Source of the DNA: Gammaproteobacteria bacterium
GTDB taxonomy: Bacteria; Pseudomonadota; Gammaproteobacteria; Eutrophobiales; Eutrophobiaceae
Assembly: GCA_965202685.1 (NCBI GenBank)
Contig: OZ241853.1
Location: 133,333 to 197,332, forward strand
Length of the DNA: 64,000 bases
Direction: 5' to 3'
Shown: piece by piece, positions 27,202 through 64,000 of the stretch
Numbering within the stretch: position 1 is the first letter of the stretch
Layout of the letters: the number at the start of each line of letters is the position of its first letter
Notes under the pieces: generated by a model
What the model was told of the DNA's origin: nothing
Database searches by the model: none
What the model saw: the letters and a program-made list of their open reading frames with translations, nothing else
Program-made: the position numbers and the translations under genes

Positions 27202-27233
27202 TTACAGCTCCGCGCTTAGCGCAACACCCGAGG

Positions 27234-27347
27234 GCGTAGCTTGGGGGCAGGGCTTTTTGCGACACGCTGTAAATCCATCCATGGACGCTCTCGGTGCGGC
27301 CATCCGGGCCGCACAGGGTCTTAAAAGCCCTGCCCCCAAGCTACGCC
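27234..27347 (-). repeat. PAL element copy 1 (imperfect palindrome, MITE-like)
   Basis: gcgtagcttgggggcagggcttttt...aaaagccctgcccccaagctacgcc. The 22-25 bp terminal inverted repeats flank a ~65-bp core. Confidence 0.8.
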
Positions 27348-27349
27348 CC

Positions 27350-27475
27350 TTTTAGCTTGTTAGTTTTCCGCCATGCGTCCTGGCGTTTCCTCGCTCGGCC
27401 AGTCATGTATTTGACATACACTCCCGCCCGCGCTCCTCACGCCAGTTGCCTAACGAAAAACTTCCGTCGCTAAAA
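27350..27475 (+). repeat. R unit (TTTTAGC...GCTAAAA) copy
   Basis: ttttagcttgttagttttccgccatgcgtcctggcg...gacgaaaaacttccgtcgctaaaa. Confidence 0.7.
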
Positions 27476-27509
27476 AACACTCGCAGACTCCGTTATCCTG
27501 CCTGGCGCA

Positions 27510-59899: not shown

Positions 59900-59960
59900 C
59901 TGGTTGGCGCACTAGGACGCAGGGCGGAAAACTAACAGGCCAAAAAGGTAATATGGCGGC

Positions 59961-61967
59961 ATGGCGGCAATTACAAATCGCATTGGAGAACGGATCCGGT
60001 TCCATCGCTTAGCGTTGATTGCATGGTGCCTGTTTCTGATAGCGGGCCTCGCCATCGTCGATGACTACGGAGTCTCGCCGGATGCGGGAAACCAGCATCT
60101 TGTCGCCGTCAACACCCTCAACTACATCCTGCATTACGACCCAGGCCAGTTGCGAGTGGTCTCTGACCGCTTCTACGGCGCCGCCTTCGAGTTGCCCCTG
60201 TTCCTATTGACGGAACGGGTCCTGGGGCTGGAAGACCCGCGCCATGTCTATCTGACCCGCCATGTCCTGACGCACCTGTTGTTTCTAATCAGCGGGTTCT
60301 GTTGCTATCTGTTGGCGTGGCGCTTGTCCGGCGACCGACTGGTCGCGCTGTTGGTCATGTTGCTGTTTCTCCTGTCCCCGCGTCTTTACGCCCATTCCTT
60401 TTTCAACAGCAAGGATGCGGTGTTCGCCAGCGCCTTCGTGATGGCCTTGCTCTTTGCGAGCTGCGCCTTTGACAGGGACTCGGTGGGGTCCTATCGGTGG
60501 TGCGGCGCGGCGGCGGGGCTTCTCATCCACCTGCGCATCATGGGCGTGGCGCTGTTTGCTCTCGTGTTGGTCTTTCGGGCCTGGGCCTGGTTTCGGGCCG
60601 AGGGCGCGGCGCAACGGCGGGTTGTAGTGACCACTGGGGTCTTTGCCCTGTGGGGGGGCGTTGTCTTGTTCATCAGCCTGCCCTACCTCTGGGGCGACCC
60701 CATAGGGCGTCTTTCAGAATATTGGGCGGCGTTGGCGGACCATCCTGCTGTCCACTCCCGCGAATTGTTCCGGGGCCGGACCTTTTCCAGCGCGGCGTTG
60801 CCTTGGGATTATATGTTGCACTGGTTCGCCATCAGCCAGCCGCCGGTGACCTTGTTGTTGGGGCTGTTGGGCCTAGTGGCCCTGGGCCTTGCCGCTGGGG
60901 GTGTCGTCAGACGCAGCGCGGGCGCCGGGCCGGGGCGCGGTTTGGGCGCCGCCGAGTTGCGCCTCGGCATCCTGCTTGCAATCTGCTTTGTGTTGCCCAT
61001 GGTCGCCTTTGTTCTGTTGCGGCCCAACACCATCAATGGCTGGCGACATTTTTATTTCCTGCACGGGCCTTTTTGCCTGCTGGCGACTTTCGCCCTGGCG
61101 TGGTTGCGCCAGCTGGCGGCGCGGGGGGTGCGAAAAGGATGGGTTGGCGGCGCGGCTTGCGTGCTGACGGCGGCGGGGCTAGGCGTCGCGGCCCTTGAAA
61201 TGGCGCAAATCCACCCCCACCAATATCTCTATTTTAATTTCTTGGCGGACCGGAAGACCCCGGAAGGGTTGCGCGAGCGCTACGAGACGGATTACTGGAA
61301 CATGATGTTGCGGCAAGGGTATGAACACATCCTGCGGCAAGCGCCGCCTGCTTCCACCATTAACATGAGGCCGCGAGAGGTTCATTCGCGGGCGGACATT
61401 AACCGCAATGTGCAGATTCTCCCGGCGGCGGCCCGCAAACGGTTCACCTATGACCGCAGTCGCGACCTGGATTTCCACTTAAATGGAAGAGGACACACGG
61501 CCCGGAGCGGCCTGCCCAAAGATCCTTTCCCCCCCGCGCTCCACCAGATCAAGGTCTATAACAACACCATTATGACCGTATCCACACCGGACCTGTCCTG
61601 GGTTGACCTGGCGGTGGCGGATGAGTATCGGGCTTTGCATCGGGCGGCGACGGCGGGGGAACCGGCGGCTCGCGGGGGTGGCTTCGATGCGCACCTGCAT
61701 GGCGACCGGCTGGCGTGGGTGAAGGAGGCTTGCGAGCCTGGGGCGTTGATGCGCGAGTTCTTGCTCAGGCTTTACCCGGCGGACCCGCGGCGTTTGCCAG
61801 AATTTCGCCGGCGCTGGGGCTATTTCGAACTCAGTGCCCGCGGGGTGCGGTTTGACGGCAAGTGTCTGGGGGCGAGACGACTGCCGGACTTCGCCCTGGC
61901 CCGGATTCGCCTGGGGCAACAGGGGCCTGACGGGGGGGTGCTGTGGGAAACCGACATCCCGTTTTAG
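59961..61967 (+). CDS. array paralogue 15 (668 aa)
   Basis: MAAITNRIGERIRFHR... Confidence 0.75.
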   Translation: MAAITNRIGERIRFHRLALIAWCLFLIAGLAIVDDYGVSPDAGNQHLVAVNTLNYILHYDPGQLRVVSDRFYGAAFELPLFLLTERVLGLEDPRHVYLTRHVLTHLLFLISGFCCYLLAWRLSGDRLVALLVMLLFLLSPRLYAHSFFNSKDAVFASAFVMALLFASCAFDRDSVGSYRWCGAAAGLLIHLRIMGVALFALVLVFRAWAWFRAEGAAQRRVVVTTGVFALWGGVVLFISLPYLWGDPIGRLSEYWAALADHPAVHSRELFRGRTFSSAALPWDYMLHWFAISQPPVTLLLGLLGLVALGLAAGGVVRRSAGAGPGRGLGAAELRLGILLAICFVLPMVAFVLLRPNTINGWRHFYFLHGPFCLLATFALAWLRQLAARGVRKGWVGGAACVLTAAGLGVAALEMAQIHPHQYLYFNFLADRKTPEGLRERYETDYWNMMLRQGYEHILRQAPPASTINMRPREVHSRADINRNVQILPAAARKRFTYDRSRDLDFHLNGRGHTARSGLPKDPFPPALHQIKVYNNTIMTVSTPDLSWVDLAVADEYRALHRAATAGEPAARGGGFDAHLHGDRLAWVKEACEPGALMREFLLRLYPADPRRLPEFRRRWGYFELSARGVRFDGKCLGARRLPDFALARIRLGQQGPDGGVLWETDIPF

Positions 61968-62087
61968 CTTGTTAGTTTTCCGCCATGCGTCCTGGCGTTT
62001 CCTCGCTCAGCCAGTCATGTATGTGACATACACTCCCGCCCTCGCTCCTCACGCCAGTTGCCTGACGAAAAACTTCCGTCGCTAAAA
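61962..62087 (+). repeat. R unit; R2 hybrid and fragments follow to about 62260
   Basis: ttttagcttgttagttttccgccatgcgtcctggcgtttcctcgctcagccagtcatgtatgtgacatacactcccgccc...gctaaaa. Confidence 0.7.
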
Positions 62088-62308
62088 CACACTTGCAGGC
62101 GCCGTTATCCTGCCTGGCGCTTCCGCGTTCAGTCAGTCATGTGCCATTACGCACACTCCTTCCTTCACTTGTCGCGCCAGTTGTCTAACGAAAAATTTCC
62201 GTCGCTAAAACAGTGGTCAATGCGCCAAGTTGCCTGACGAAAAATTTCCGTCGCTAAAATGGTTGCGGGTAACGGAAAGCTAACAAGTTAAAAGGGTAAT
62301 ATGGCGGC

Positions 62309-64000
62309 ATGTCTGCAATAACCAATCGCATTGGAGAATGGGCTCGATTCCATCGCTTAGCGTTGATTGCATGCGCCCTGTTCCTCCTCACGGGCCTCGC
62401 CATCGTCGATGACTATGGCGTTTCGATGGACACAGGCCCTCAACGGGACATCGCCATCAACACCGTCAACTATGTCCTGCATGACGACCAGAGCCTGTTG
62501 CAATCAGACTTTATAGACCGCTTCTACGGCATCGCCTTCGAGGCGCCCCTGTTCCTGTTGACGGAACGGGTACTGGGGCTGGAAGACCCGCGCCATGTCT
62601 ATCTGACCCGCCATGTCCTGACGCACCTGTTGTTTCTAATCGGCGGGTTCTGTTGCTACCTGTTGGCGCGGCGCTTGTCCGGCGACCGGCTAGTCGCGCT
62701 GTTGGTCATGTTGCTGTTTCTCCTATCCCCGCGTCTTTACACCCATTCCTTCTTCAACAGCAAGGATGCGGTGTTCGCCAGCGCCTTCGTCATGGCCTTG
62801 CTGTTTGTGAGCCGCGCCTTTGACAAGGACTCGTTGGGGGCCTATCGCTGGTGCGGGGCGGCAGCGGGACTTCTCATTAACCTGCGCATCATGGGCGTGG
62901 TTCTGTTTGCCATCGTGTTGGTCTTTCGGGCCTGGGCCTGGTTCCGGGCCGAGGGGGACGCGGCGCGGCGGCAGGTGGCGGCGACCGCTGGGGTCTTTGC
63001 CCTGTGGGGGGGCGTTGTCTTGTTCGTCAGCCTGCCCTACCTCTGGGAAGACCCCGTAGGGCGTCTTTCAGAATATCGGATATTTTCGGCCGATCATCTT
63101 GCCACTCCTTCCCGTGAATTGTTCCGGGGTCAGGCGTTTTCCAGCGCGGCGTTGCCTTGGGACTATGTGTTGCGCTGGTTCGCCATCAGCCAGCCGCCGG
63201 TGACCTTGTTGTTGGGTCTGTTGGGCTTGGGGGCCTTGGGCTTTGCCGTTAGGGGCGTTGTCAGACGCGGCGCGGGCGCTGGGCCGGGCGCGGCATGGGG
63301 GGTTGCCGAGTTGCGCTTTGGCGTCTTGCTCGCAACCTGCTTCGCGTTGCCCCTGGTTGCCTTTGCGCTGTTGCGGCCTAACACCCTCTATGGCTGGCGG
63401 CATTTTTATTTCCTGCACGGGCCTTTTTGCCTGCTGGCGACCTTCGCCCTGATGGGGTTGCGCCAGCTGTCGGTTCGGGGGGCGCGAAAAGGGTGGGTCG
63501 GCGGCGCGGCTTGCGCACTGACAGCGGCGGGACTGTGCGTCGTGGTTATCCAGATGGCGCAGATCCATCCTAACCAATATCTCTATTTCAACTTTTTTGT
63601 GGACCGGAAGACCCCGGAACGACTAAGCGAACGCTACAAGATGGATTACTGGAACATGATGTTGCGGCAAGGGTATGAACACATCCTGCGGCACGGGCCC
63701 GCTTCCACCATTAACATGAGGCCGCGAGGGTGGGGGTCATCGACGCAACGGATCAACCGCAATGTGCAGATTCTCCCGGCGGCGGCCCGCAACCGGTTCA
63801 CCCATGATCCGAAACGCGACCCGGATTTCTACTTGGAAACCACCGCCATAAATCTGCCGCCGGAGGCGCCTAAAGTGTTTTTCCCTCCCGTTCTCCACCG
63901 GTTCAAGGTCTATAACAACACGATGTTGACCGTATCTACTCCGGATCTGTCCCGGGTTGACCCGGCGGTGGCGGATGAGTATCGGTCTTTGCATCGAGCG
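62309..64000 (+). CDS. array paralogue 16 (partial; runs off window end with no stop)
   Basis: MSAITNRIGEWARFHR... from ATG 62309 (the first ATG at 62301 hits TAA after 6 codons). The frame is still open at 64000. Confidence 0.7.
   Translation, partial: MSAITNRIGEWARFHRLALIACALFLLTGLAIVDDYGVSMDTGPQRDIAINTVNYVLHDDQSLLQSDFIDRFYGIAFEAPLFLLTERVLGLEDPRHVYLTRHVLTHLLFLIGGFCCYLLARRLSGDRLVALLVMLLFLLSPRLYTHSFFNSKDAVFASAFVMALLFVSRAFDKDSLGAYRWCGAAAGLLINLRIMGVVLFAIVLVFRAWAWFRAEGDAARRQVAATAGVFALWGGVVLFVSLPYLWEDPVGRLSEYRIFSADHLATPSRELFRGQAFSSAALPWDYVLRWFAISQPPVTLLLGLLGLGALGFAVRGVVRRGAGAGPGAAWGVAELRFGVLLATCFALPLVAFALLRPNTLYGWRHFYFLHGPFCLLATFALMGLRQLSVRGARKGWVGGAACALTAAGLCVVVIQMAQIHPNQYLYFNFFVDRKTPERLSERYKMDYWNMMLRQGYEHILRHGPASTINMRPRGWGSSTQRINRNVQILPAAARNRFTHDPKRDPDFYLETTAINLPPEAPKVFFPPVLHRFKVYNNTMLTVSTPDLSRVDPAVADEYRSLHRA

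Follow-up and report, generated by a model that had tools for sequence, protein, structure and literature searches.

Glycosyltransferases of the GT-C fold, such as ArnT, PglB and the PMT enzymes, have active sites that combine an acidic residue in the first loop with basic residues for the lipid phosphate. The mycobacterial Emb and Aft enzymes draw on a polyprenyl-phosphate sugar donor and have cell-envelope polysaccharides as their targets. Known contingency glycosyltransferases switched through homopolymer tracts are mostly soluble GT-A or GT-B enzymes. To our knowledge, long tandem arrays whose paralogues have diverged but stayed intact are a rarity in bacterial genomes. Here we describe such an array in a gammaproteobacterium of the family Eutrophobiaceae. 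It lies on a stretch of 64,000 nucleotides of contig OZ241853.1 (assembly GCA_965202685.1, positions 133,333 to 197,332), hereafter the window, to whose first letter all positions refer. Sixteen paralogues of ~2 kb, found by open reading frame (ORF) listing and alignment, follow one another head to tail on the + strand from 27532 to 64000 and take up 57% of the window. We consider it somewhat better than an even bet that they constitute a recombining GT-C family forming a diversified, partly phase-variable envelope-glycan repertoire, a function that we infer.

A profile search of 1.84 billion cluster representatives yielded a family of 6,516 clusters (50% identity) at E ≤ 1e-3, with 1,285 clusters at E ≤ 1e-30. 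Relatives at ~40% identity clear the gathering threshold of the Pfam model PMT_2 (PF13231, 26.1 bits) with scores of 27.5–44.4 bits. AlphaFold2 applied to 15 window paralogues alone produced an unusable model, with a predicted local distance difference test score (pLDDT) of 35, and worked after these ~40%-identity relatives had been added. With an alignment of 49 diverse sequences, copy 9 was modeled at a pLDDT of 87.6 and a predicted template modeling score (pTM) of 0.88. In a Foldseek comparison of this model with the PDB, the first 38 places are all occupied by GT-C-fold proteins. The matches include STT3, ArnT, EmbA/B, AftA, ALG3/9/12, PglB, DPY19, Pmt1/2/4, and PIG-U of the glycosylphosphatidylinositol (GPI) transamidase.

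The topology, read from the model and the distribution of lysines and arginines, begins with a short cytoplasmic N-terminus and a first transmembrane (TM) helix, TM1 (residues 16–35). A periplasmic loop 1 of ~55 residues with amphipathic helices follows, starting with the motif DDYG, and leads into ten more TM helices and a periplasmic C-terminal domain (residues 428–674). The modeled total of 11 TM helices falls within the 8–13, arranged around a conserved core, that define GT-C proteins. DDYG (residues 34–37) sits directly after TM1 at its periplasmic end and supplies the acidic residue that loop 1 carries in this fold. Tyr36, Asp41, Pro140, Arg141, Lys151 and Asp152 are invariant across the 49 sequences at 36–45% identity, and Asp35 and His145 are nearly so; Asp35 is present in 15 of the 16 window copies and is replaced by Asn in copy 4. 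Arg141, His145, Lys151 and Asp152 cluster around the periplasmic turn between TM3 and TM4, near the membrane surface. By analogy with characterized enzymes, such a pattern is what a GT-C active site should show. Judged from the model, the paralogues are an uncurated subfamily of GT-C (PMT_2-like) integral-membrane glycosyltransferases. The preliminary description of the window had proposed a GT-C-like layout with about 12 helices and a C-terminal domain of ~220 residues. The layout holds up: only GT-C folds head the structure search, an acidic motif lies at the end of TM1, relatives pass PMT_2, and the structure prediction that had been suggested returned a confident model with GT-C matches. 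The helix count, however, becomes 11 TM helices plus the amphipathic helices of the loop, and the domain lengthens to ~245 residues.

The last ~95 residues form a beta-rich module with two conserved cysteines, Cys602 and Cys646. This module is repeated up to 10 times in relatives, is also fused to a Wzy_C (O-antigen-ligase-like) membrane protein, and has no sequence match in Pfam, NCBIfam or the PDB. Large proteins without a PMT_2 domain (P0208, P0228, P0236, P0248 and P0274) also contain it, in five to ten tandem copies, and one of them has Wzy_C.

Fourteen of the 16 copies are intact and complete. Pairwise identities are 68–87% for the proteins (70–87% in the MAFFT alignment, 68–86% by BLASTP) and 77.7–89.4%, with a mean of 82.4%, for the DNA; 15 copies could be aligned over their full length. 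Copy 1 (27532–29505, 657 aa) is intact and followed after 9 nt by copy 2 (29515–31509, 664 aa, intact), which is identical to database protein P0044. Copy 3 (31820–33817, intact) encodes ~665 aa from the conserved ATG, and copy 4 (34327–36330, ~667 aa) is the one that reads DNYG for DDYG. Copy 5 (36708–38687, 659 aa, intact) precedes copy 6 (38829–40832, up to 667 aa), and two further intact genes, copy 7 (41320–43302, 660 aa) and copy 8 (43695–45695, 666 aa), precede the modeled copy 9 (45705–47729, 674 aa), which starts 9 nt after copy 8. Copy 10 (48137–50119, 660 aa) is intact, copy 11 (50296–52300) is frameshifted and appears as two overlapping ORFs, and copy 12 (52986–54983, intact) again encodes ~665 aa from the conserved ATG. 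Copy 13 (55164–57176, 670 aa) is identical to P0048, copy 14 (57550–59535, 661 aa) is intact, and copy 15 (59961–61967, 668 aa), also intact, is identical to P0015. Copy 16 (62309–64000) is cut by the window edge after 564 codons; its orthologue in a sister genome, P0064, has 663 aa.

This sister genome is an independent assembly, ERZ25068319 contig_1, of 2,972,662 bp (the contig of the window has 2,971,370 bp). It carries collinear orthologues at 90–99% nucleotide identity and has two copies fewer, with a single gene in place of window copies 3 and 4 and another in place of copies 10 and 11; copy number therefore changes between close strains. The sister array stops one copy after the orthologue of copy 16 and is followed by a GntR regulator and TonB-dependent receptors. 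Because the two arrays are collinear, the whole array most likely comprises ~17 copies and would end one copy past the window. The array is genuine and no assembly artefact, as judged from copies that differ at 11–22% of nucleotides, far above read error, and from the collinearity of the independent assembly. Identity between the strains is stepped (sister loci L001/L005 against 36708–64000), at 90–92% for copies 5–11 and 95–99.4% for copies 12–16, which suggests that part of the array has been exchanged or is diverging faster.

The species holds further arrays. At least nine more paralogues are present in the window's own genome, none of them more than 83% identical to any window copy. In the sister genome, a second array of at least seven copies adjoins ClpS/ClpA, a double-GT2 gene and a Wzx-like flippase, and a third array has three copies. 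On a Joint Genome Institute (JGI) contig of the same species, another array end abuts ksgA-pdxA-surA-lptD. Gene order, here and in the DUF1302/DUF1329/MMPL cluster of the window, suggests a gammaproteobacterium. In all, the sister genome has four arrays or more, and the copies number at least 26 per genome, which is nearly 2% of 3 Mb. Much of what the preliminary description had said of the locus is borne out by these data. It had reported at least 16 same-strand tandem paralogues of ~2 kb, which ORF listing and alignment recover, with the correction to its count of 16 that copy 11 is not intact. The motifs it listed (M-AAMTNRIGER-RFH, DDYG and ...GVRFDGKCLGAARLPDFAL.R.RLGQ.G.WE.DIPF) are all present, the spacers it called repeat-built do consist of two modules, and the array it took to be open at 64000 runs on, with copy 16 truncated there and one more copy to be expected from the sister genome. 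The genome-wide count of homologues and the comparison with a related strain that it had proposed gave the 26 or more copies per genome and the collinear, two-copies-shorter sister array.

Several features indicate that the copies recombine and are kept by selection. Over its 5′ ~900 nt, copy 4 is 99–100% identical to copy 14, 23 kb away, and over its 3′ ~800 nt it is 96–97% identical to the 3′ half of its neighbor, copy 3. On these identities it is a clear chimera, a mosaic that unites the membrane part of copy 14 with the periplasmic domain of copy 3 and that is explained by gene conversion or segment exchange; the difference in copy number between the two strains is explained by unequal crossing-over. 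The ratio of nonsynonymous to synonymous substitution rates (dN/dS) averages 0.45 between paralogues (0.40 in the TM core); purifying selection thus maintains the copies. Along the gene dS spans a tenfold range (0.11–1.1), a sign of patchy homogenization. Variability between copies amounts to 0.76 bits outside the membrane versus 0.35 bits inside (p = 8e-12) and peaks in the first periplasmic loop, in a long periplasmic loop (residues 241–295) and in the loops of the C-terminal domain.

Two copies contain long poly-G tracts. A G13 tract in copy 10 (49122–49134, + strand) is in frame, and a G22 tract in copy 11 (51287–51308, + strand) puts the gene +1 out of frame; G21 would restore it. Both tracts occupy the same codon site, in the predicted cytoplasmic loop between TM8 and TM9, where the other 14 copies have G3–G7, and the single orthologue in the sister genome has an in-frame G17. 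This arrangement, with a length that differs between strains, has what looks like the anatomy of slipped-strand phase variation. At another conserved codon position (~nt 639, in an 'AGGGA' loop after TM6), G8 tracts occur in copies 4, 5, 8 and 14 (34966–34973, 37344–37351, 44334–44341 and 58189–58196, respectively); their length is insufficient for them to be called hypermutable.

The spacers are built from two modules, A (~127 nt) and B (~117 nt), in either orientation and in variable number, and neither occurs in window positions 1–27231. The start of module A coincides with or overlaps the stop codon of the gene before it. Its reference copy, of 127 nt, lies at 27349–27475 on the + strand. 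Full-length copies on that strand include 33812–33937, 40827–40952, 43465–43591, 47723–47849, 50113–50239, 52301–52427, 52807–52931, 55042–55162, 57177–57303, 59608–59733 and 61962–62087; those on the − strand include 31682–31807, 36504–36629 and 38775–38900, and there are many partial copies besides. In copies 6 (38829–38900) and 13 (55164–55210), an inverted module A encodes the N-terminus, which reads ..KTNKLK-RARFH, in place of the usual MAAMTNRIGER. The same variant is found in further paralogues of the genome (P0087 and P0096); the spacer repeat has thus come to serve as coding sequence.

Module B has 10 copies in the window, four on the + strand (the reference, of 117 nt with long terminal inverted repeats, at 27232–27348, and 31547–31661, 36369–36483 and 43350–43464) and six on the − strand (34113–34226, 41090–41203, 47912–48025, 52692–52806, 57375–57489 and 59787–59900). 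Its terminal inverted repeats of ~25 nt, dispersed copies and double orientation are those of a miniature inverted-repeat element; inspection of the flanks by eye gave no obvious target-site duplication. The consensus has a very stable predicted fold of −70 kcal/mol, with compensatory changes at three stem pairs among the 10 copies. A search of the window against Rfam at gathering thresholds and a tRNA scan returned no match. Module B may be a miniature mobile element or a bidirectional hairpin. The modules are also found in other arrays of the same species and beside the non-array genes GntR and ksgA, module B, for instance, at L005 16742–16856, L005 17907–18021 and L004 6078–6187. Because they also neighbor non-array genes, we regard them as genome-wide miniature repeats that favor recombination and not as array-specific regulators.

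All nine TATAAT hexamers on the + strand of the window (27520, 31808, 34315, 36696, 43683, 45691, 48125, 50282 and 52974) and all six TAATAT hexamers (41305, 45693, 50284, 57538, 59949 and 62297) are located 6–9 nt before a paralogue start codon, beginning with the box 6 nt ahead of the ATG of copy 1. By direct inspection, these −10-like boxes cover 13 of the 16 copies; the TATAAT of copy 9 overlaps the stop codon of copy 8. No Shine–Dalgarno sequence lies between hexamer and start codon, and a scan for consensus two-hexamer sigma-70 promoters and for terminators found no enrichment over shuffled sequences. Boxes so placed suggest that each copy has a private −10 element and is transcribed into mRNA with a very short leader or none, an arrangement that would be unusual for a proteobacterium. 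Silent-cassette antigenic variation, in which one expressed copy draws on donors, was considered and rejected, given 14 complete ORFs with start codons and the 13 boxes.

Patterns derived from the window paralogues found no relative in the GTDB representative genomes, and the family profile found more than 519. The best 80 of these, on which the following taxa rest, are all in chromosome-level long-read metagenome-assembled genomes (MAGs) and belong to Dehalococcoidia, Caldilineaceae, Gammaproteobacteria/Pseudomonadales, Binatia, Spirochaetia, Nitrospirales, Latescibacterota, Vicinamibacterales and Longimicrobiales. Many of the loci are again same-strand tandem arrays, with nine copies in 22 kb in a Dehalococcoidia genome, eight copies in two Binatia genomes, and four in Spirochaetia, Caldilineaceae and a 1.8-Mb gammaproteobacterium. 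Apart from three closely related Spirochaetia, multi-copy genomes invariably contain the nearest relative of each of their copies, and the nearest foreign relative is often from another phylum (Chloroflexota–Gammaproteobacteria at 71%, for example). This pattern bears the signature of horizontal spread, with independent amplification or concerted evolution coming afterwards. One homologue sits inside a typical surface-polysaccharide cluster. Many family members in a 90%-identity protein collection are on contigs of only 2–10 kb; the arrays are resolved only by long-read assemblies and are probably hidden in short-read MAG catalogues.

We therefore favor, with the reservations below, a repertoire of envelope-glycan enzymes. 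Each copy would, like other GT-C enzymes, use a polyprenyl-phosphate-linked donor at the periplasmic face and transfer its sugar to an envelope acceptor, either a surface polysaccharide or lipopolysaccharide (LPS) or a secreted protein. The paralogues would differ chiefly in the periplasmic portions and hence in acceptor or linkage. Unequal crossing-over and gene conversion or segment exchange maintain and remodel the array, and recombination together with slipped-strand switching would let the cell vary its repertoire of glycan decorations at the surface. Host recognition or phage pressure is the probable selective agent, since similar arrays recur in several phyla of what seems to be a sponge-symbiont community. 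The preliminary description had seen in the locus a site of diversification instead of ordinary paralogy. Mosaic copies, extramembrane variation, poly-G tracts, changing copy number and arrays elsewhere all support that view; the role at the level of substrates is one that we infer. We propose more tentatively, as a possibility short of an even chance, that the arrays belong to an undescribed surface-variation system of host-associated, probably sponge-symbiont bacteria, in which a GT-C family with a new two-cysteine periplasmic beta module has spread between phyla by horizontal transfer and been amplified independently in each lineage into long tandem arrays. New combinations of envelope glycan or glycoprotein decorations would then arise continually through segment exchange between copies, changes in copy number and poly-G slippage.

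Several observations weigh against the envelope-glycan interpretation. The window copies themselves score 22.6, 19.3 and 12.1 bits with PMT_2, below its threshold, so that their link to this family is only transitive, through relatives that pass; the recognition by Pfam that the preliminary description had looked for is thus obtained for the ~40%-identity relatives and stays below threshold for the copies it concerned. Profile searches with paralogues and relatives returned no match in NCBIfam, PHROGs or PDB sequences. The window lacks genes for a polyprenyl-phosphate sugar synthase or flippase, and when 129 ORFs flanking 29 related loci were surveyed with Pfam, no conserved partner emerged. 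Cytoplasmic loops are variable too (0.68 bits), and in membrane proteins TM helices generally change more slowly than loops; for both reasons the pattern of variability is not specific to acceptor diversification. The first loop, a stretch of low dS, is the one place where the ratio of mean dN to mean dS in 30-codon windows exceeds 1, and this could be an effect of gene conversion. The G22 frameshift could be a homopolymer length error of the assembly. The sponge-symbiont habitat, finally, is a reasoned guess from taxon mix and record style (UUID-named, chromosome-level records) rather than from metadata: both match HiFi/metaMDBG MAG sets published for high-microbial-abundance sponges (PMC12586988, PMC12648040).

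Among the alternatives, the one that survives best leaves the chemistry unchanged and alters the acceptor. The copies could be protein O-glycosyltransferases of the PMT, TMTC or TMEM260 kind, each with its own set of secreted or outer-surface proteins recognized through the C-terminal beta-sandwich domain; we think this unlikely but worth keeping in view. A second alternative, which we find improbable, treats the array as a by-product of its repeats (modules A and B and the 82%-identical genes), amplified neutrally or for dosage into redundant copies. Such an origin would agree with the copy-number difference between two close strains, with spacer modules elsewhere in the genome and with nearest relatives mostly in the same genome, as in concerted evolution. 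Neutral or dosage duplicates are, however, not expected to diverge by 13–32% in protein sequence and yet stay intact under purifying selection; orthologues are retained one to one between strains, and the same amplification has taken place in at least five phyla with unrelated spacers.

The near-invariance of the acidic loop motif and of the residues at the TM3–TM4 turn, as in an active site, makes it quite improbable that the proteins keep a GT-C fold without a transferase role, as a scaffold, an accessory to polymer export or ligation, or a surface receptor or decoy. This possibility draws on the presence of the non-catalytic GT-C-fold proteins PIG-U and GAB1 of the GPI transamidase among the structural matches, on DNYG in copy 4, and on the occurrence of the C-terminal module without a recognizable GT domain (P0228, P0236 and P0248). 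Misassembly, by which one or a few genes were falsely expanded, has a negligible chance of being correct: repeats are a classic source of assembly error and the G22 frameshift may be a consensus error, but the nucleotide differences between copies, the hundreds of distinct close family members on other contigs, and an independent sister assembly that has the orthologues in the same order contradict the artefact of one or two genes that the preliminary description had allowed for.

Upstream of the array, window positions 1–27231 contain unrelated genes, mostly on the opposite strand: a meta-cleavage aromatic pathway, a DUF1302/DUF1329/MMPL/BNR cluster, a reductive-dehalogenase-like gene, FolE2 and farnesyl-diphosphate synthase. 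The dehalogenase-like ORF (11367–13724, − strand, 785 aa) scores 194.6 bits with the TIGR02486 reductive dehalogenase model, against a cut-off of 160.35 bits, and has an N-terminal extension of ~480 aa. Its neighbors are DsbA-like, FAA-hydrolase and nitroreductase genes, and the complete meta-cleavage pathway (21273–26378), with which it may form a dehalogenation-plus-ring-cleavage route for halogenated aromatics, is nearby. The cluster of DUF1329, DUF1302, MMPL-RND and BNR-repeat (YCF48-like) genes (14269–21276, − strand) lies directly upstream of the meta-cleavage genes.

The fold and superfamily of the array proteins are already known; the subfamily is uncurated. In the open-access literature we found no report of long tandem bacterial GT-C/PMT_2 arrays or of their parallel amplification across phyla, and nothing relevant on sponge symbionts with GT39, PMT or ArnT. 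The same amplification occurred separately in at least five phyla that seemingly share a habitat, and strong common selection on the cell envelope is therefore indicated. If the copies differ in acceptor specificity, such arrays would be a new, easily recognized genomic marker of glycan-based surface variation in uncultured symbionts, and a natural GT-C library with swappable periplasmic domains for glyco-engineering. Should the proposed surface-variation system prove real, it would be the bacterial equivalent of the multigene families with which eukaryotic parasites vary their surface, and would serve to escape phage or host phagocytosis.

ArnT and PMT enzymes (PMT_2, GT39, GT83) are encoded by single genes or a few dispersed paralogues and not by a 17-gene array; the window copies differ from them further in lacking a sequence match to solved structures, in falling below the PMT_2 cut-off, and in a C-terminal domain that has no Pfam model and carries the repeatable two-cysteine beta module of ~95 aa. 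Module B resembles Correia-like and REP-like repeats in its ~115 nt, ~25-nt terminal inverted repeats, many intergenic copies and occurrence in both orientations, but has no sequence relation to described elements in Rfam and no evident target-site duplication. With the GtrC enzymes of O-antigen modification, in which a periplasmic GT-C protein adds a lipid-carrier sugar to a finished glycan, the likeness is one of proposed logic, and nothing suggests family membership. That logic, shared with contingency genes, is several members per genome, different specificities and on/off switching. Unlike Gtr loci, the arrays have no GtrA or GtrB partner beside them, no PHROG match and no prophage context. 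The poly-G tracts inside two copies recall the poly-G and poly-C genes of Neisseria, Haemophilus, Campylobacter and Helicobacter, with the difference that long tracts are confined here to two of 16 copies. Similar in arrangement are the mycobacterial embC-embA-embB genes, and Aft, which are also tandem same-strand GT-C paralogues with a periplasmic C-terminal domain and which are themselves among the fold matches.

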